Origin: Alphaproteobacteria bacterium
GTDB lineage: Bacteria > Pseudomonadota > Alphaproteobacteria > Rs-D84
Direction of reading: 5' to 3'
Assembly: GCA_017503725.1 (NCBI GenBank)
Contig: JAFVSL010000003.1
Coordinates: forward strand, 72,272-136,271
Length of the DNA: 64,000 bases
In this document: positions 2,710-44,715 of the stretch, one piece after another
How positions within the stretch are numbered: position 1 is the stretch's first letter
How the letters are laid out: each line of letters opens with the position of its first letter
Notes under the pieces: generated by a model
The model's database searches: none
What the model saw: only the letters and a program-made list of their open reading frames with translations
Told to the model about the DNA's origin: nothing
Program-made: the position numbers and the translations under genes

Positions 2710-2979
2710 TTACATTGCGCACGCGTCGCTAAATTCATATGTGCCAGAAACGCCTGTATAGGACACGCCCGCCGGCGCATACATTATGCAATTTGCTGCG
2801 GGATTTGATGTCAAACACGAATTTGCCGTTCCCGCCGAAACTGTATCCGATGGGCACGTTGTCGCAACAGATATTGCGGGTGCATTGACGGAAATATATC
2901 CCGCCGGACACTCTGTTGATGGCGTGGCGGCACTTGCGACAAATGGAACGCAAATAAATAAGAAACCTATTTTTTTCAT
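2710..2979 (-). CDS. secreted cysteine-rich small protein, family B (paralog of 44446-44715)
   Basis: Signal peptide; conserved TYEF(S/T)D(A/V)C C-terminus shared with the 44446 and 49610 proteins. Confidence 0.65.
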   Translation of the reverse strand: MKKIGFLFICVPFVASAATPSTECPAGYISVNAPAISVATTCPSDTVSAGTANSCLTSNPAANCIMYAPAGVSYTGVSGTYEFSDACAM

Positions 2980-3449
2980 CAGTTTTCCTCTAAGTTATTT
3001 AAAAATTTTAGCACTGTACTGGCATAGCCTTCGCCTTCGTCGCCATATGATACACATCCTTGTGCGCATAAAGCATTTGTAGTGACATCGGTCAATCCAA
3101 GTACGTCGGGACTTAAGTCCAGATACTGATGAGAGGCGGGTCTTATCCATTTGGACAAAACGGGATATATCATTTTGCAATAACAATAAACTCTTTCCGT
3201 AGCGATGCTGCCATCAGAGTCTAAATCATCTGCCACATCGCCAACATCTGATAGAGAAAATGTTGCAATCCCCCGATATTTTACGCCGTTGCATTTTACC
3301 CACCAATTCATACCATCAGGCATCTCCTCGGTTCCTTCATCACAAACCTCCCAATTATCCATTGTTGGTTTGAATACACACTGTTGCACTGCAAATGCTG
3401 GGGCGGTCATCATTGCCCCAACCGCGGTTAAGGTTAAAAGTTTTTTCAT
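2979..3449 (-). CDS. secreted cysteine-rich protein, family A (CYCKM-x-YP-x-SKW motif; paralog of 43995-44432 and 50463-50936)
   Basis: Signal peptide MKKLLTLTA-GA; conserved Cys pattern; same N-terminus as the 43995 protein. Confidence 0.65.
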   Translation of the reverse strand: MKKLLTLTAVGAMMTAPAFAVQQCVFKPTMDNWEVCDEGTEEMPDGMNWWVKCNGVKYRGIATFSLSDVGDVADDLDSDGSIATERVYCYCKMIYPVLSKWIRPASHQYLDLSPDVLGLTDVTTNALCAQGCVSYGDEGEGYASTVLKFLNNLEEN

Positions 3450-3480
3450 CTGTATCGCTCCCTTCTTTGTTTTATTCGCG

Positions 3481-3705
3481 AAAAAACAAAAACCACTGCG
3501 TAAAACGAGTGGTCAGGAGGTTCGAAACAATCCTTAGAATTGTGTGCTTATTCAATATATTCACAACCCTCCTGACGCTAAAACAGTCAGGAGTTTTCTT
3601 TTATGTCCGATATTTTCACCAGACACTAAGGAACGGGTTTCGACACCCCATTACAACCATCGGTTATAACACCTGCATTATAACGTATTGTTTTTGTTTG
3701 TGCAA
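3481..3705 (-). promoter_or_regulatory. conserved promoter + structured 5' leader with terminator (copy 1 of 3)
   Basis: -35 TTGCAC / -10 TATAAT, then ATGGGGTGTCGAAACCC box, hairpins CTCCTGAC/GTCAGGAG and GGTCAGGAGGGTT/AACCTCCTGACC, then terminator ACCACT-loop-AGTGGT + T8. Near-identical to 43716-43966. Confidence 0.6.
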
Positions 3706-3789
3706 TTGCTTAGATAAATAAAAGTTTAGTGGTTATCATTACGCGTTATGTGATATAATTCCCATTGCGGAAAACAAAGGAATGGAAAA

Positions 3790-4747: not shown

Positions 4748-5986
4748 TTAATTGCATACGACAACATATGGTGGCTTTGATTTTTCAGTGTTTATTCCCG
4801 TTTCGCCACAATCTTTACAGTTAAAGCGTCTGTTTCGGGAATATTCCCCCCCTAATGGTACATTGATTCCATCGATTCCAGATTGATTTACATATTCACG
4901 ATTTGGAAAACCAAAGAACAATGCACGTGTTGGCCCCCCGCATTCGGATACATTCCCATTATAGCATCGTGGGTCTGTGATTTTTGTTTCGTCTGGAACA
5001 CACCGTGCAATACAGGTTTCATTATCCACAATCATTTTTTCGCAATCCGTACACGATGTTTGTGGTGCGCGCAATGTTGCGCCCGCCACGCCATAGGCCG
5101 CATTGTACCGAATGTGTTCGCATTTTTTTATTGTCTGTATATTGGATGGATCACCCACGCATTCCCATTCCAGTGTATTATAGTTTAATTGTGCAACCAT
5201 TTTGTCCGGGCAACTTTTTTCTGGGAACGGGCTTATGCATTCCCAAACACTGTCGACCATAACGGCGCTTTGATTATTCGCGCACAGTGGTTTGCGGGAT
5301 TCGTCCGGTACGCATTCCATCAAATCAGAATCCCACACCATATCCCCGCCACAGTTTGTTTTTGTGTTATAACCCGTACATTGCCAACGGCCAAAGCGAT
5401 AAATCTTGACCGTGCCGACGGGACAGGTGATGTCTTCGGTAATATTGACCGCAATTTCGGTTAATGTATCTGGTATTTCGTATTGTGTTAAGTACACCAA
5501 CTGTCCCGGTGTTAATTCCATTTTTTCTATGATAGATTTTGGTACAATTCGTTTCGTACTGGTCCCGCCAGACATAATCACGTTGTCATTAAATATTCCA
5601 AAAGTGCCCGCATCATTAAATTCAGATTCCAGAATTTCCATCATACCGTTATATTGTGCATCGTTAATTGGTGCGGTTGCGGTGACGATGTAACTGAATG
5701 CGGGTTTCTTGTTTCGTACAATTTCGCATTTGGTTATTCCCAATTTGGAATCCAGGCATATAAATTGGCTGATGATATTATTTTGTTGAACACACACGTC
5801 TTCGAAAGTTGTTCCCTTTATCTGGGCGTTGTGAACGGCGGCGGCGCACTGTGCAATCATTCGCAGGTCTGATTTTTCAATCGCATATTCTGTTTCGTGT
5901 TCTTGGATTTTCTGGCTGGGGCTGTCGATTATGTAATAGCCCGCCATAAACAAAGCCACCAAAATCATAATAAAAATATTCATCAT
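4748..5986 (-). CDS. hypothetical membrane-anchored cysteine-rich protein
   Basis: N-terminal TM helix followed by 412 aa with about 30 Cys in recurring C-x-D/C-x-x-C spacing; no family recognised. Confidence 0.5.
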   Translation of the reverse strand: MMNIFIMILVALFMAGYYIIDSPSQKIQEHETEYAIEKSDLRMIAQCAAAVHNAQIKGTTFEDVCVQQNNIISQFICLDSKLGITKCEIVRNKKPAFSYIVTATAPINDAQYNGMMEILESEFNDAGTFGIFNDNVIMSGGTSTKRIVPKSIIEKMELTPGQLVYLTQYEIPDTLTEIAVNITEDITCPVGTVKIYRFGRWQCTGYNTKTNCGGDMVWDSDLMECVPDESRKPLCANNQSAVMVDSVWECISPFPEKSCPDKMVAQLNYNTLEWECVGDPSNIQTIKKCEHIRYNAAYGVAGATLRAPQTSCTDCEKMIVDNETCIARCVPDETKITDPRCYNGNVSECGGPTRALFFGFPNREYVNQSGIDGINVPLGGEYSRNRRFNCKDCGETGINTEKSKPPYVVVCN

Positions 5987-8287: not shown

Positions 8288-9013
8288 ATGCCAAAGTCTG
8301 ATCCATTGATGCGTGCGGGACACCGCGAACGTCTGCGCAAGAAATTCGAGGCCGGCAAAACCAGTGACGCCGAAGAGATGGAATTGCTTTTGACATATGT
8401 TATTCGTCGTCGTGATGTTCGTGTCCCGTCACGAAAGTTGACGGAAAAGTTTGATACCGCATATAATGCAATGATTGCAAATCCAGATGATATTAAATCT
8501 GTGCCCGGTGTGGGTGATGCGGTTGCGACATTCTTTAAATTATTGCACAGTATTGTGGCACGGGGATATTACGAACGGGACAAGAAAGAATCTGTTTTTA
8601 TGACGATGGACAGTTTAAAAGACTATTGTCGTATGCACTTGGCAAATAAACCCACCGAAGAAATGCGTGTCATGTATCTTGATACCAAGGGGCGTGTTCT
8701 ATGCGAAGAAATAAATGATATCGGTACGGCAAATCAATCTAATGTTTATCCGGATAAAATCTTGGCGCGCGCATTGCTTACCGGTGCGGCCAGTGTTGTA
8801 TTATTTCATAATCATCCGGTTGGTACCTGTGACGCATCAGAAGCAGACAGAGATATGACACTGGATCTGGGAAAAATGTTGTTACAGCATAAAATACGTA
8901 TTTACGATCATCTGATTATTGATAATTTTGGACAGATATACAGTATGCGCACGGCTGCGCATATGTTGGAACTGGATTTGGAAGAGGCCAGAATGGCCCT
9001 AAAACAAATCTGA
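8288..9013 (+). CDS. radC: RadC-family JAB/MPN domain protein
   Basis: HNHPVGTCDASEADRDMT JAMM-like motif; 241 aa. Confidence 0.8.
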   Translation: MPKSDPLMRAGHRERLRKKFEAGKTSDAEEMELLLTYVIRRRDVRVPSRKLTEKFDTAYNAMIANPDDIKSVPGVGDAVATFFKLLHSIVARGYYERDKKESVFMTMDSLKDYCRMHLANKPTEEMRVMYLDTKGRVLCEEINDIGTANQSNVYPDKILARALLTGAASVVLFHNHPVGTCDASEADRDMTLDLGKMLLQHKIRIYDHLIIDNFGQIYSMRTAAHMLELDLEEARMALKQI

Positions 9014-9619
9014 AACGTCGCACACCTGGCTCAGTTTTGTTGCGCCGCCCTGAATCATTTTATTGGTGTTTAGCGTGTATTCGGTTTTTGTTGCGACCGA
9101 CGGTGTGTCCCACGTATCAACAAACGGGCGCGAGATTATTGTTGCACCAAACACCGGGGTGAAATGAAACTGAATCAATCGCAACGCACAATCGGCACCG
9201 TGCGTTGTTCTGAAACCTTTTGGGGTGATATCGTTAAATATTCCGTTATTATTCATTTCAATTTTGTATTCGTCATAGTCGTGCGCATTCCCGGTTGCCA
9301 CGTGCGTACGTGTAATTCGGTCCATATGTCCATCATTGTTAATGTCGCGATTAAATTCGGCGACGCTTTCGATGCCTGCGCCAAATTCATCCAATGTGCC
9401 ACGTATTACGGCATCGGGTGCCCCCAATCCATCCGAAAATTCACCACCGGGTTTGATGGCGCTTGGTGCGCGTTTTGATATAGTTGGTGTTTCAAAGGCG
9501 GTTGTTGTACCCGACTTGCTAAAATCGCCCTTTAGCATCATAAACATCAGTGCGCATATCGCCGCCAGCATTAAAATCAATAATACATTAACCAGTGTTC
9601 CACCACGCTGAGATTTCAT
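8999..9619 (-). CDS. hypothetical membrane-anchored protein (pilin-like N-terminus)
   Basis: MKSQRGGTLVNVLLILMLAAI resembles a prepilin/pseudopilin N-terminal helix; remainder unknown. Confidence 0.45.
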   Translation of the reverse strand: MKSQRGGTLVNVLLILMLAAICALMFMMLKGDFSKSGTTTAFETPTISKRAPSAIKPGGEFSDGLGAPDAVIRGTLDEFGAGIESVAEFNRDINNDGHMDRITRTHVATGNAHDYDEYKIEMNNNGIFNDITPKGFRTTHGADCALRLIQFHFTPVFGATIISRPFVDTWDTPSVATKTEYTLNTNKMIQGGATKLSQVCDVSDLF

Positions 9620-20890: not shown

Positions 20891-21172
20891 TTATTCATTG
20901 CTTCGTATTGTCATTGGTTTCAGGGGATTTGCATCCGAATGCCGAAAGATTTCATCACGTGCCATTGTTAACCTTATTTTTGTTTCCTGATATCGGGCCT
21001 CGCGCTCGTACGTGCGTTTCAGGCTATAAAATATTTGTTCCATTTGTGAATATGCCAAAAAAATTTCGCTTAATAAATCAGATTGTTTCGGGCGATACAT
21101 TTCGGCAACCTTGAAATCCGCCTCTAAATCCGCCAGTGTGTCTTCTGTAATATCCATATCGTTTACCCCCAT
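20891..21172 (-). CDS. hypothetical small cytoplasmic protein
   Basis: 93 aa ORF directly downstream of leader copy 3. Confidence 0.45.
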   Translation of the reverse strand: MGVNDMDITEDTLADLEADFKVAEMYRPKQSDLLSEIFLAYSQMEQIFYSLKRTYEREARYQETKIRLTMARDEIFRHSDANPLKPMTIRSNE

Positions 21173-21180
21173 TGTTTATT

Positions 21181-21401
21181 GTTTATAAAAATAAAAAACC
21201 GCATCTGAAAATCAAAAGCGGTTGGAGGTTAAAGACTATTCTAGAAAGATAGTGCTGTTTATTGGATATTCACAGCCCTCCAACCGACGGTTGGAGATTT
21301 TTTACGTCATCACAGACGTTCTAGAAAGGGTCTTTACACCCCATACTGAACAAAAACATTCAGTACCCGTCAATTATACCCCACAAAAAATCATATTGCA
21401 A
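21181..21401 (-). promoter_or_regulatory. conserved promoter + structured 5' leader with terminator (copy 3 of 3)
   Basis: -35 TTGCAA / -10 TATAAT, ATGGGGTGTAAAGACCC box, hairpins CTCCAACC/GGTTGGAG and GGTTGGAGGGCT/AACCTCCAACC (compensatory relative to copies 1 and 2), terminator CCGC-loop-GCGG + T-run. Confidence 0.6.
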
Positions 21402-29408: not shown

Positions 29409-29490
29409 GCACACTTTTTATGCACGGTTTCGACACCCCAAAAACCACGCGCACTATGCACGTGGTTTTTTGTTGGACAATCGGGGTGCT

Positions 29491-42011: not shown

Positions 42012-43241
42012 ATGCAATCTAATTTATTGCAAATGTACAAACGTGCGCTGGATATGCGCGATCCGTGGTTGCGTCGTTGGGCGGATGCACGCCGGTATAC
42101 AATGCCGGAAACCGATGACGACACGGCAACGCTGTTTGATGCAACCGCAATGGATGCGGTTGATAATCTGGCGGCATCACTTTATACATTATTGACCCCA
42201 CCGGAATCATTGTGGCTGAACCTGGTCCCGGAAAGTGATTTGTCACCCGATGCAGGCACCGCGACGGATGTGTTGCGTGCAAACTTAAATGATTCTAATT
42301 TTTATACGACCGTGCACCAATGTTATTTGGATTTGGTCACGTTGGGAACAGCGTGTTTGTTTATGGCGGAAAATCCGATTGGTGCGTCATCTGCATTTTC
42401 GTTCACCGCGATTCCAATGTCAGATATTGCAATTTTACCAAACGCGGTATTTCACACCACATCAATGTCCGCGCGTGATGCGATGGAAAAATATCCGACA
42501 TGGACGGTGCCGGCAAACCTGCGTGATACAATAAAACAAGACCCCGACACCCCAATTAAACTGGTACAGAGTTTGGTTGGAACTGAATTTACAGCGTGGT
42601 TGGATGCCGGTGGCGACATTGAAAACAACATTGTTGCAACGGGAACATTTGAAACAAATCCGTATTTGATTTTCCGTTGGTCGGTGACGTCCGGCGAAAT
42701 TTATGGGCGTGGCCCGGTCTTGCGTGCGTTGCCAGATATTAAAACCGCGAACAAGGTTGTGGAATTAGTCTTGAAAAACGCGACAATATCCGTATCTGGT
42801 ATCTGGATGGCGGACGATGACGGCGTGATAAATTTGAATAACATCAGCCTGACGCCGGGTGCGATTATACCAAAGGCGGTTGGTTCGTCGGGCCTGACAC
42901 CATTGACCAGTGGTGCAAACTTTGATGTGTCCCAGATTATTTTAAAAGATCTGCGGGAACGCATCCGTCACGCATTGTTGGCGGACCGGTTGGGCCTGTT
43001 AAGCGAAAAAGAAATGACCGCAACCGAGATTATGGCCCGTAATTCCGATATGATGCGAATCTTGGGTGCGACCTATGGTCGATTACTGCACGAATTTATA
43101 AGGCCATTGTGCGAACGCGGTTTGCAGATTTTATCACGCCGTGGTGTGATTGAACCAATAACCCTGCACGGGGATGCAGAATTAAAATACATTGCACCAA
43201 TTGCACAAATGGTTGCGCTGGAATCAATTGCGGGGGTGTAA
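42012..43241 (+). CDS. phage portal (head-to-tail connector) protein, T7 gp8-like (shortened)
   Basis: MYKRALDMRDPWLRRWADARRYTMPE...AVDNLAASLYTLLTPPESLWLNL parallels T7 gp8 YERLKNDRAPYETRAQNCAQYTIP...GLNNLASKLMLALFPMQTWMRL. Confidence 0.65.
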   Translation: MQSNLLQMYKRALDMRDPWLRRWADARRYTMPETDDDTATLFDATAMDAVDNLAASLYTLLTPPESLWLNLVPESDLSPDAGTATDVLRANLNDSNFYTTVHQCYLDLVTLGTACLFMAENPIGASSAFSFTAIPMSDIAILPNAVFHTTSMSARDAMEKYPTWTVPANLRDTIKQDPDTPIKLVQSLVGTEFTAWLDAGGDIENNIVATGTFETNPYLIFRWSVTSGEIYGRGPVLRALPDIKTANKVVELVLKNATISVSGIWMADDDGVINLNNISLTPGAIIPKAVGSSGLTPLTSGANFDVSQIILKDLRERIRHALLADRLGLLSEKEMTATEIMARNSDMMRILGATYGRLLHEFIRPLCERGLQILSRRGVIEPITLHGDAELKYIAPIAQMVALESIAGV

Positions 43242-43244
43242 TAA

Positions 43245-43439
43245 ATGTCGGAAAATATCGCACAAGATTTTGCGCGCACATTTTGCACCCCATCGGGTGC
43301 GCGTGTGATTGAGCATTTACGCAAAATAACTATTGAACGGGTACTGGGGGCGAACGCGACGGACGCAGAATTGCGCGGGGTTGAGGCCCAACGTGCCCTT
43401 GTTCACCAAATTGAAAATATGATAGAACGGGGGAAATAA
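43245..43439 (+). CDS. hypothetical small protein
   Basis: 64 aa ORF tightly packed after portal gene. Confidence 0.4.
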   Translation: MSENIAQDFARTFCTPSGARVIEHLRKITIERVLGANATDAELRGVEAQRALVHQIENMIERGK

Positions 43440-43441
43440 AA

Positions 43442-43699
43442 ATGACGACGCAACCCAGTGCCATTGGCATCCTAGATTTTTTACGCGACAGTTGGTTTTT
43501 AATCGCCTTTATTGCGGGGTGTGTCTACTGGGTTGCGCGCCAGGATTCGTCCGTTGCGGAACTGGAACGTGTTGATGCCCGTATAACATCGCTTGAAAAT
43601 CGCACAACGGTCTTGGAAACGGGTATCGGCCAAATTCAAATAAAAATAGACGATATCAAAGAAGACCTGAACCTGATAAAAGGCGCAGTTATTAAATAA
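43442..43699 (+). CDS. hypothetical TM + coiled-coil protein (holin/spanin-like)
   Basis: One TM helix followed by heptad coiled coil; 85 aa. Confidence 0.4.
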   Translation: MTTQPSAIGILDFLRDSWFLIAFIAGCVYWVARQDSSVAELERVDARITSLENRTTVLETGIGQIQIKIDDIKEDLNLIKGAVIK

Positions 43700-43715
43700 A
43701 AGTTTATCTAAGCGA

Positions 43716-43966
43716 TTGCGTAAGTGGAAACATTTGGTTATAATGTGATTGTTATGGTGACTTTGCCATAATGGGGTGTAGAAACCCGACTTACGCGTCG
43801 AAACATAAATAAGCGGAAATATGCCGGACGGTTGTGTTTTGATGAAATAAAACTCCTGAACTTTATTGGTCAGGAGGGTTGCGAATATATTGAATAAGCA
43901 CACAATTCGTAAGATTGTTTCTAACCTCCTGACCACTTGAATTTATTCAGTGGTTTTTGTTTTTTC
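43716..43966 (+). promoter_or_regulatory. conserved promoter + structured 5' leader with terminator (copy 2 of 3)
   Basis: -35 TTGCGT (43716-21), 17 nt spacer, -10 TATAAT (43739-44); ATGGGGTGTAGAAACCC box; hairpins CTCCTGA/GTCAGGAG and GGTCAGGAGGGTT/AACCTCCTGACC; terminator ACCACT-loop-AGTGGT + T-run. Confidence 0.6.
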
Positions 43967-43994: not shown

Positions 43995-44432
43995 ATGAAA
44001 AAACTTTTAACCTTAACCGCGCTTGGTGCGATTCTTGCCGCACCGGCAATCGCCGCAACCCAATGCGTTAAGCAGGTTGATGCAAATACCCCCTGTACGA
44101 ATTTAACCAATGGAAATTCGGATTGGATAATTCAGTGTGGCGGGCAAAGATACAGAGGGGTCATTTTCCTTGGTGAATATCAACCTGAGGGCAGCACCGC
44201 AGATAGTCTGGAAACGGGTGTTGCAGATGACCCACATAGGGCGGATGATGGCTGTTGGTGTAAAATGACATATCCGGTGGAATCAAAATGGGTTTCGGTT
44301 GGGTATACGCCGGGTTCTGGTGGATTTTTTACGTGTTCCCAACGTTGTTCTTGGGGTGACACCGATTTGGGGCTTTTTTACAGCAAAGATCTTGTAAATG
44401 ATTACTATTTACCAAATTTAATCTCTGACTAG
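43995..44432 (+). CDS. secreted cysteine-rich protein, family A (CWCKMTYPVESKW)
   Basis: Signal peptide MKKLLTLTALGAILAAPAIA; paralog of 2979-3449. Confidence 0.65.
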   Translation: MKKLLTLTALGAILAAPAIAATQCVKQVDANTPCTNLTNGNSDWIIQCGGQRYRGVIFLGEYQPEGSTADSLETGVADDPHRADDGCWCKMTYPVESKWVSVGYTPGSGGFFTCSQRCSWGDTDLGLFYSKDLVNDYYLPNLISD

Positions 44433-44445
44433 GTAGGGGGGGAAA

Positions 44446-44715
44446 ATGAAAAAAATAGCATTTATAATTGCGTTTATGCCGATGTGTGCATATTCCGTCG
44501 CCCCATCCACCAGTTGCCCCACAGGATACGTAACCGTTACGCGTTCTAATTTTATTATGGCGACTGTGTGTCCAACGGGATATGTGGCGGCACGAAAGTT
44601 AAATTCTTGCCTGAACAATGCAACGTATGATTGTTGGCTGTATACGCCGGCCGGCGTCAGTTACACCGACGGTCTCGGCACGTATGAATTTACCGATGTG
44701 TGCCCAATGTCATAA
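44446..44715 (+). CDS. secreted cysteine-rich small protein, family B
   Basis: Paralog of 2710-2979 (both 89 aa; shared CPTGY...TYEFTDVC). Confidence 0.65.
   Translation: MKKIAFIIAFMPMCAYSVAPSTSCPTGYVTVTRSNFIMATVCPTGYVAARKLNSCLNNATYDCWLYTPAGVSYTDGLGTYEFTDVCPMS

Follow-up and report, generated by a model that had tools for sequence, protein, structure and literature searches.

In a 64,000-nucleotide (nt) stretch of DNA from an alphaproteobacterium of the order Rs-D84 (GenBank assembly GCA_017503725.1, contig JAFVSL010000003.1, positions 72,272 to 136,271; the whole stretch is hereafter called the window), we analyzed a unit that occurs three times and consists of a sigma70-type promoter, a 5' hairpin (P0), a structured core, and a hairpin followed by a U-run, together specifying a leader of roughly 190 bases. 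Judging from its conservation and covariation, we hold with moderate confidence that this unit is a new cis-acting transcription attenuator, representing a riboswitch-like leader family of Rs-D84 gut Alphaproteobacteria. The pattern of compensatory changes moreover argues that the leader is under selection in both of its conformers, one in which the terminator can form (state A) and one in which it would be disrupted (state B).

The three copies had been placed by an earlier note on this DNA at 3481-3705 (-), 21181-21401 (-) and 43716-43966 (+), and these coordinates and strands were borne out. Aligned over about 320 nt, copies 1-3 have a mean column identity of 70%, and a 17-nt pattern for the 5' box (ATGGGGTGTNNARACCC) has three exact matches in the window, compared to 0.28 expected by chance. 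A covariance model built from 23 copies recovered copies 1-3 at 127-173 bits and found no other copy in the window; a fourth 5' box candidate, at 29425-29441 (-), was rejected, being a chance match with a terminator beside it, none of the other motifs and no covariance-model match. All three copies contain what the note had described, namely sigma70 promoter hexamers with a 17-nt spacer, the 5' box, a hairpin CUCCNNNC/GNNNGGAG, a conserved interior, a hairpin with a U-run, and a second CCUCCNNNC further downstream (part of the note's 'P2') that can pair with the same GGAGG arm. Its copy labels had been swapped, as copies 1 and 3 carry CTCCTGAC/GTCAGGAG and it is copy 2 (21181-21401), not copy 3, that carries CTCCAACC/GGTTGGAG, and its consensus strings fitted only in part, since copy 2 has the box ATGGGGTGTAAAGACCC and the interior GAATATCCAATAAACAGCACTATC. 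The parts of copy 1, in the order of transcription and with the helix names used throughout, are listed below.

3677-3705 (-): promoter, with the -35 TTGCAC at 3700-3705, a 17-nt spacer and the -10 TATAAT at 3677-3682
3650-3670 (-): P0, the 5'-terminal hairpin, GUUAUAACC-GAU-GGUUGUAAU, by folding
3635-3649 (-): 5' box, GGGGUGUCGAAACCC, which is the P1 5' strand in state A and folds into a hairpin of its own (local hairpin, GGGU..ACCC) in state B
3626-3632 (-): P2a, UCCUUAG, pairing with P2b (3531-3537) in the minimum free energy (MFE) fold
3604-3625 (-): P3, a variable hairpin, its length varying widely in the family and its GCGUC start conserved
3568-3593 (-): P4 (the 'P1' of the earlier note), with CUCCUGAC at 3586-3593, a loop and GUCAGGAGG at 3568-3576, and an A-rich tract before it
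3545-3565 (-): P5, a 3-bp covarying stem with a 15-nt loop, GAAUAUAUUGAAUAA, at 3548-3562
3517-3543 (-): switch region, with P6a ACAAU (3539-3543), P2b CUAAGGA (3531-3537), P6b AUUGU (3527-3531) and P1b GUUUCGAACCUC (3517-3528)
3512-3520 (-): alt-P4 3' arm, CCUCCUGAC, able to pair with GUCAGGAGG at 3568-3576; putative antiterminator 3' strand
3481-3512 (-): terminator, an imperfect stem CCACUCG..CGCAGUGG with a U-run at 3481-3492, by folding

In the MFE folds of copies 1 and 2, GGGGUGU-NNNN-AC of the 5' box and GU-NNNN-AACCUC, located directly before the terminator, together form P1, and the 6-10 nt that follow the box pair with the segment immediately 5' of the P1 3' strand to form the adjacent hypervariable helix P2. 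Neither pairing was part of the structure proposed in the earlier note. Its claim of covariation, on the other hand, holds well beyond the window, compensatory changes being abundant across an alignment of 115 sequences: for P0, P1 and P5 taken together, 97.6% of the cells are paired, compared to 75.9% in shuffles, changes on both sides of a pair are found in 675 cells, compared to 192, and sliding the partner cuts pairing to 35-49%. Both-side changes affect eight of the nine P0 pairs, and the four variable positions of P1 covary, with three or four pair types each. P2, which cannot be aligned in columns, was tested sequence by sequence; it has 106 distinct sequences among 128 copies, the cognate duplexes average -8.2 kcal/mol as against -2.1 kcal/mol for non-cognate ones, and 96% of the cognates lie beyond the non-cognate 5th percentile. 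P4 forms at least seven of its eight pairs in 141 of 151 copies. In the P5 loop, GAAUA-N4-GAAUAA, the AAUA of the second half is 100% invariant, and a hairpin insertion between the two halves is tolerated. Since G-U pairs are frequent (G7-U35 in 85 of the 115 copies, G16-U27 in 87 and G38-U322 in 101), the transcribed strand is fixed.

When RNAalifold was run on our first alignment, it chose an alternative fold, in which the 5' box forms the local hairpin GGGU/ACCC, GNNNGGAGG pairs with CCUCCNNNC (alt-P4, the 'P2' of the earlier note) and ACWAU pairs with AUWGU (P6), so that alt-P4, P5 and P6 make up a three-way junction. The helices of this state B are paired in 98.3% of the cells, with both-side changes in 617 cells compared to 163 in shuffles. 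Three successive alt-P4 pairs have both-side changes in 31-34 copies, the P6 pair 294:311 is AU in 77 copies and UA in 37, and the local hairpin pair 38:80 is GC in 85, GU in 16 and AU in 12. Three-way covariation links the 5' arm of P4, the GGAGG arm and the 3' arm (AACC/GGUU/AACC, UGAC/GUCA/UGAC and UGCA/GGCA/UGCC). A distant member, L114 (7240-7452, minus strand, on a 1.79-Mb contig of a higher-GC alphaproteobacterial metagenome-assembled genome (MAG), GC 53%), keeps P0, P1, P2, P4, alt-P4 and P6, all built from wholly different sequences, such as AGCCU:GGGCU in P6, GUUUCAUAUG:CAUAUGAAAC in P2 and the P4 triple CUCCUCGACC/GGUCGGGGAG/CUCCCCGAUC.

The two folds cannot coexist, because some nucleotides of P1 are also used by alt-P4, by P6 and by the local hairpin, and P2b constitutes the whole P6 loop, with linkers of 0-1 nt. 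A pseudoknot containing both P2 and P6 was rejected by inference from this geometry, as the P6 loop would have to be fully paired. That P4, alt-P4 and the terminator exclude one another, as the earlier note had argued for its 'P1', its 'P2' and the terminator, also proved correct: of the 124 copies in which a terminator could be detected, 117 have an alt-P4 3' arm that extends 2-8 nt (mostly 2-4) into the 5' base of the terminator stem. The antiterminator model proposed there therefore stood in its hairpins and its exclusivity, but a second, stronger competitor, P1 together with P2, had been overlooked. Most of the invariant nucleotides are invariant because they are obliged to pair in both folds; the P5 loop, which is single-stranded in both, is the main conserved segment for which dual pairing does not account.

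Alt-P4 is intrinsically stronger than P4 (-19.6 versus -13.7 kcal/mol), and therefore the real competitor of state B is P1+P2. For the full RNA, state A has an advantage of about 10 kcal/mol; prior to synthesis of the terminator, the margin is about 8 kcal/mol, a difference that led us to reject the idea of equally stable folds at that stage. State A is also favored in the MFE structure at every prefix length, with P2 and the local hairpin appearing first, then the P1 core and then outer P1. The terminator hairpins themselves are short and weak, with a mean of -9.1 kcal/mol and a mean U-run of 5.6, and they should no longer function once the lowest G-C pairs, those beside the U-run, are lost. 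As the advantage of state A amounts to 8-10 kcal/mol for all the transcript lengths tested, termination would be the default, and expression is probably off by default according to these calculated energies.

The same energetics would suit a simpler module without an effector, made up of a strong promoter, a compact 5' structure that stabilizes and insulates the mRNA and a leaky terminator that sets a fixed expression level, with state B as a co-transcriptional folding intermediate or a by-product of the direct repeat of CUCCNNNC: state A is the ground state at all lengths, the terminators are weak, and the unit precedes unrelated genes. Against this stands the covariation in helices that belong to state B only (alt-P4 beyond P1, P6 and the pair 38:80). 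Since L114 retains the state B helices with different sequences and the 3' arm is a better complement of the GGAGG arm than the P4 5' arm is, state B itself appears to be selected, and we consider a module of fixed output to be quite improbable.

Returning to the attenuator that we favor, its proposed mode of action is as follows. A strong sigma70-type promoter would start transcription at the first base of P0, giving a nascent RNA of about 160-220 nt. In state A, the 5' box and the hypervariable segment would pair with the pre-terminator sequence to form P1 (about 12 bp) and P2 (6-10 bp), which would enclose P3, the P4 hairpin (CUCCNNNC/GNNNGGAG) and P5; with CCUCCNNNC partly locked in P1, the terminator would form and transcription would stop about 25 nt before the ribosome-binding site of the open reading frame (ORF). 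In state B, the 5' box would fold on itself (GGGU/ACCC), P6 (ACWAU/AUWGU) would form with the P2 3' strand as its loop, and the GGAGG arm would leave P4 and pair with CCUCCNNNC(C) into alt-P4 (9-11 bp). The resulting three-way junction would take the bottom 2-4 nt of the terminator stem, allowing RNA polymerase to read into the gene. An effector would be needed for state B, either holding or occluding the 5' box and P2a, or clamping the junction via the invariant P5 loop GAAUA-N4-GAAUAA.

The beginning of the transcript was placed with the help of an alignment of upstream regions, in which a TATAAT-like -10 starts 32-33 nt from the 5' box in most family copies, with TTGCA/TTGAC 17 nt upstream of it. 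Because the -10 lies at a fixed distance from the 5' box, transcription would start at the first P0 base, as it probably does in copy 1. A simple consensus scan called the copy 2 promoter and, in a 16-nt register (TGCACA), that of copy 1; the copy 3 promoter, with its weak -35, was not called. Scanning copies 1-3 from upstream of the promoter past the start codon revealed no second promoter-like site on the element strand. An A/T-rich block, (A)CTTTTATTTATC-NAAG, is conserved immediately before the -35 in some copies (3706-3725 (-) and 43700-43715 (+) in the window, and loci L030 and L092), and could be an UP element or an operator.

Since the box starts with AUG in 97 of 132 copies (AUG GGG UGU ...), we also considered attenuation by a leader peptide, as well as a type I toxin mRNA with hok-like 5'-3' pairing. 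The leader does resemble the hok and aapA1 mRNAs: these too have a closing 5'-3' helix, an early local 5' hairpin that is later displaced, an internal GGAGG alternately sequestered by CU-rich strands (here CUCC), their own promoter and terminator, and many chromosomal copies. However, 21 of the 132 copies have triplets other than AUG, GUG or UUG, mostly GCG, ACG and UCG, there is no upstream Shine-Dalgarno (SD) sequence, P0 abutting the box, the supposed codons change by compensatory substitutions, and stop positions differ among copies 1-3. An upstream ORF encoding a leader peptide was thus rejected on its unconserved start triplet and missing SD. As for a toxin, no ORF is conserved after the GGAGG, the UUG-initiated frame of copies 1 and 3 being absent from copy 2, and no frame encoding a short hydrophobic peptide is common to copies 1-3; unlike hok and aapA1, the unit has no conserved small ORF or antisense RNA, and a separate ORF lies after its terminator. 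Both explanations are, in our view, hardly credible.

Several observations concern individual helices. At least four A precede P4 in 81 of 109 copies, and, read in antisense, P4 and the A-tract (21278-21296 (+) in the window, with equivalents elsewhere) resemble an intrinsic terminator, CTCCAACCGACGGTTGGAG followed by ATTTTTT, so that the unit might also stop antisense transcription. In longer variants (L041:761-983, L001, L031, L049, L053 and L115), P3 contains a conserved terminator-like hairpin, GCGCC-N4-GGCGU followed by U6, whose U-run can pair with the upstream A-rich strand. The parts of copies 2 and 3 are the following.

21373-21401 (-): copy 2 promoter, TTGCAA, a 17-nt spacer and TATAAT
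21193-21366 (-): copy 2 RNA, with P0 at 21343-21366, the 5' box at 21328-21342, P2a at about 21319-21326 and P3 at 21305-21318
21278-21296 (-): copy 2 P4, CUCCAACC/GGUUGGAG, followed by P5 at 21255-21275
21220-21253 (-): copy 2 switch region, with P6a at 21249-21253, P2b at 21239-21246, P6b/P1b at 21225-21239 and the alt-P4 3' arm at 21220-21228
21193-21221 (-): copy 2 terminator, with the stem at 21199-21221 and the U-run at 21193-21198
43716-43744 (+): copy 3 promoter, TTGCGT (a weak -35), a 17-nt spacer and TATAAT
43751-43965 (+): copy 3 RNA, with P0 at 43751-43772, the 5' box at 43773-43787, P2a at 43790-43795 and P3 at 43796-43844
43853-43877 (+): copy 3 P4, followed by P5 at 43880-43900
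43902-43934 (+): copy 3 switch region, with P6a at 43902-43906, P2b at 43908-43913, P6b/P1b at 43914-43928 and the alt-P4 3' arm at 43925-43934
43933-43965 (+): copy 3 terminator, with the stem at 43933-43953 and the U-run at 43954-43965

The window is bacterial chromosome, with genes for L33, S4, LigA, a Na/Ca exchanger, an FKBP isomerase, a T2SSE-type ATPase and five tRNAs. Beyond it, a nhmmer search gave 157 matches, 155 of them distinct sequences, and the family thus comprises about 155 distinct copies, with E-values down to 1e-34, all hosted by gut Alphaproteobacteria of the order Rs-D84 (Candidatus Enterousia) and one distant relative; Enterousia belongs to the order Rs-D84 and has genomes of about 0.75-1.0 Mb (PMC12306168). 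Scanning a genome collection with the 5' box pattern gave 117 loci, about 20 of them true homologues, all in MAGs from the gut that bear the label Candidatus Enterousia or uncultured Alphaproteobacteria. With a pattern for the 3' half, a metagenome scan gave 120 loci, of which 100 were searched by the covariance model (109 matches), nearly all containing the full element, and the model also found further, more divergent copies in the fetched loci. The earlier note had proposed a covariance-model search and a comparison with Rfam; the former yielded these further homologues in related gut genomes, and the latter gave no Rfam 15 match to the unit at gathering or permissive thresholds. At the gathering threshold only tRNAs pass, in the window and in four other loci, and permissive scans of copies 1 and 3 returned chance-level matches only (E of at least 0.16). 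In the literature on Enterousia or Rs-D84 we found no description of an RNA element.

A unit present in many copies, lying beside variable secreted-protein genes with an invariant signal peptide (MKKLLTLTA), might instead be a mobile or recombinational repeat, similar to a miniature inverted-repeat transposable element (MITE) or to the boundary of a surface cassette, with no function at the RNA level, and copy 3 abuts an apparent phage remnant. That remnant, at 42012-43699 of the window and directly before copy 3, contains a head-to-tail connector (portal, PF12236, E 2e-84), a Bbp19-like protein and an 85-amino-acid (aa) coiled-coil or membrane ORF; ribosomal protein S4 lies on the other side of the copy 3 cassette. 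Yet a phage origin of the element was rejected, as 90 IMG/VR viral contigs match the 5' box pattern and none of them carries the rest of the element. Mean column identity among the copies is about 50%, which is unlike MITEs or repetitive extragenic palindromes, and the hundreds of substitutions between copies that preserve pairing point to selection on RNA structure rather than to recent transposition. No terminal inverted repeats or target duplications were seen on reading the three copies and the alignments, which was not accompanied by a dedicated repeat search. We therefore regard a repeat of this kind as very improbable.

We turn to the genes behind the unit. A same-strand ORF with an SD follows 129 of the 152 copies that have a complete 3' end, and its start codon lies a median of 28 nt past the end of the model match, which includes the terminator (60 nt or less in 102 of the 129). 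Of the remainder, three are followed by another unit, nine lack an ORF in the next 300 nt and 11 reach the end of the contig. The 129 ORFs fall into 48 unrelated protein clusters, mostly secreted proteins without an assigned family, in keeping with the portable module that the earlier note had proposed. A crude signal-peptide test was passed by 95 of the 129, and, as it missed several clear signal peptides, about 75-80% carry one; 60 of the 129 contain at least 4% Cys. The largest cluster (55 members) is a family of roughly 145 aa, found behind copies 1 and 3, whose signal peptide, MKKLLTLTA, is invariant and which is usually accompanied by a Cys-containing partner of 89 aa. Other clusters include an outer membrane protein beta-barrel, an ephrin-receptor-like Cys repeat protein, a hexapeptide transferase and small helix-turn-helix (HTH) proteins. 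The linkage of the leader to the same protein family is kept across species.

Within the window, as had been claimed, two copies precede secreted Cys-rich cassettes and one precedes an unrelated ORF:

2710-3449 (-): copy 1 cassette, a 156-aa secreted Cys-rich ORF at 2979-3449 (SD-like GGGAG) and an 89-aa secreted Cys ORF at 2710-2979
20891-21172 (-): copy 2 downstream ORF, 88-93 aa, its likely start an ATG at 21157 with GGGGG before it
43995-44715 (+): copy 3 cassette, a secreted Cys-rich ORF of 145 aa with its 89-aa secreted, Cys-containing partner at 44446-44715

The copy 2 ORF has no signal peptide and no family match. The 145-aa ORF of copy 3 is a paralog of the 156-aa ORF of copy 1 (40% identity), and the paralogous two-gene cassettes, with their invariant MKKLLTLTA and mature parts about 40% identical, resemble a diversifying surface-protein family. 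For this main downstream family we found no match in Pfam, NCBIfam or PDB sequence searches (the Pfam scan covered about 20 window ORFs, mostly neighbors of copies 1-3), nine homologues that are all unnamed or labelled hypothetical, and no Foldseek match with E < 1 to a structural model with a predicted local distance difference test score (pLDDT) of 72. In a homologue of window 2982-3449 (P0007), the public gene call has a false 39-aa N-terminal extension, MEYQIHGTILTIVLNLLTTRIYSVVFVFSRIKQKKGVEQ, which is translated leader RNA, and long spurious ORFs cross copies 1 and 3 on the opposite strand (3395-3721 (+) and 43499-43936 (-)). A further Cys-rich ORF, of 412 aa, at 4748-5986 (-) and thus 1 kb from copy 1, has a hydrophobic segment at its N-terminus; it has no family match and is not preceded by a leader.

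Some units do not stand singly before a gene. In locus L240 (151-1010, plus strand), four complete units follow one another in tandem, and in L292 (~8450-9400, plus strand) at least four; every one of them has a -35/-10 and a terminator of its own. The L292 array includes a divergent subtype (5' box GGAGCUUCACGACUCC, P6 GAUA:UAUC) followed by small HTH-type ORFs. Such arrays bring up the possibility that the unit is the gene of an abundant trans-acting small RNA (sRNA), either of the multi-copy 'sibling' type or protein-sequestering, its two folds controlling not termination but how the free RNA acts or matures, and downstream expression being incidental read-through. Every unit, tandem or single, is equipped as an independent transcription unit with a strong promoter and a terminator, a hairpin at either end of the RNA is typical of stable sRNAs, the P5 loop, invariant and unpaired in both folds, could be a seed or a protein site, no ORF directly follows 12 of the 141 copies that could be assessed, and the density of copies is high (3 per 64 kb, in genomes of about 0.9 Mb; PMC12306168). 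There is likewise a resemblance to the sibling sRNAs (the CcsR or 'cuckoo' RNAs with CCUCCUCCC motifs, and AbcR1/2) in the alphaproteobacterial host, the tandem copies and the CCUCC-type motifs, but there the motif is a hairpin-loop seed, whereas here the CCUCC anti-SD-like motifs are base-paired in both folds, and the unit is much larger and stands directly in front of ORFs. That position, so close to the start codon in most copies, the maintained linkage to one protein family and the lack of any other promoter-like site in the scanned regions of the window copies all speak against a free RNA, and the conserved overlap of alt-P4 with the terminator would have no obvious role in one. Complements of the P5 loop with up to three mismatches number 11 in the window, compared to 5.6 expected; two of them are the elements themselves and none stands out. 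On balance we find an sRNA gene unlikely as the sole explanation. A short terminated RNA may nonetheless accumulate from the attenuator and have a second role, as the tandem arrays with their own promoters and the terminal hairpins at both ends suit a stable free RNA.

The signal that a switch of this kind would read can be approached by comparison with known systems. In the pbuE (ydhL) adenine riboswitch, a terminator/antiterminator switch of the ON type, a 5' leader likewise contains a three-way junction whose 3' strand overlaps the 5' arm of the terminator, and there, too, the terminator fold is the more stable one and the junction fold needs stabilizing for read-through. Unlike pbuE, the present element has two built-in upstream competitors (the P4 5' arm and the 19-bp P1+P2), no Rfam riboswitch match and regulated genes without a metabolic theme. 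A small-molecule riboswitch proper, in which the ligand would bind either the multi-helix junction of state A (OFF) or the alt-P4/P5/P6 junction of state B (ON, as in pbuE), would explain why covarying helices surround conserved unpaired nucleotides in a 5' untranslated region and why a mutually exclusive terminator/antiterminator platform is present. The many copies per genome before surface or secreted proteins can also be likened to c-di-GMP riboswitch regulons: c-di-GMP-I/II (GEMM) riboswitches occur in many copies per genome, are often terminator-based and precede genes of surface, secreted and adhesion proteins. The likeness is limited to the regulon, as the element has no GEMM match in the Rfam scans and an unrelated architecture. 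The reduced genomes of these hosts are, in addition, assumed to encode few transcription factors. On the other side, dual pairing already accounts for most of the invariant nucleotides, P1+P2, with about 19 bp, far exceeds the usual length of a ligand-dependent P1, the element resembles no riboswitch in Rfam, and the 48 downstream clusters share no metabolic theme or pathway that would point to a ligand. A metabolite riboswitch in this strict sense seems doubtful to us.

Leaders that depend on a protein (BglG/LicT with its ribonucleic antiterminator (RAT), ANTAR, PyrR and HutP/TRAP) provide a second comparison, as they also terminate by default and have an alternative structure over the terminator that needs stabilization, and the GAAUA repeated twice in the P5 loop could bind a dimer. 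Unlike them, the element has no RAT sequence, no ANTAR-type pair of hexaloops and no series of UAG or GAG repeats; the hairpin loops of state B are 15 nt (P5) and a variable 5-11 nt (P6), and the Rfam scans gave no ANTAR or RAT match. Nor is there a Rfam T-box match, or a Stem I specifier loop, T-box sequence or antiterminator bulge in the alignment. For the effector of the attenuator, which may be a small molecule, a protein, an RNA or the kinetics of the polymerase, we lean slightly to a trans-acting macromolecule over a metabolite, since the two GAAUA half-sites look like a dimer site, and either assignment is a tentative one.

A number of points weigh against a cis-acting attenuator. No effector candidate was found, and state B is disfavored at equilibrium at all lengths, so that switching itself is inferred. 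The overlap with the terminator is mostly 2-4 nt only, and the simple consensus scan called none of the three window terminators, which have bulged stems or long loops, although folding detects all of them. The 3' hairpin of L114 lacks a U-run, its end lying 20 nt ahead of the start codon, and the expression platform of this member may differ. The covariation of alt-P4 comes mainly from two sequence classes and hence from few independent events. Finally, the copies with no ORF directly behind them (about 8% of those assessable) and the tandem arrays with a promoter and terminator per unit are unlike what is expected of a purely cis-acting leader.

A broader possibility, which we put forward tentatively, is that the unit represents a new class of switch gating much of the secretome of a gut symbiont with a reduced genome by means of dozens of paralogous leaders, either as a riboswitch for a global signal (a second messenger, for instance, or a cue from the host) that would be read by the invariant P5 loop and the junction, or as a self-contained kinetic switch that responds to the speed of the polymerase; the terminated 190-nt RNA might then also act in trans.

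The leader explains errors in annotation, as ORF callers translate through this RNA. If the attenuator model holds, it would offer RNA biology a well-supported bistable RNA with covariation in both conformers, and thereby a test case for co-transcriptional switching and an orphan switch. For microbiome biology, it would define a candidate host-interaction regulon composed almost entirely of proteins without assigned function. There would be several dozen copies per genome of about 0.9 Mb, should the density of three per 64 kb hold genome-wide, and a single RNA module would thus control a large share of the secreted and surface proteins of an uncultured, genome-reduced lineage that is common in the guts of humans and ruminants.

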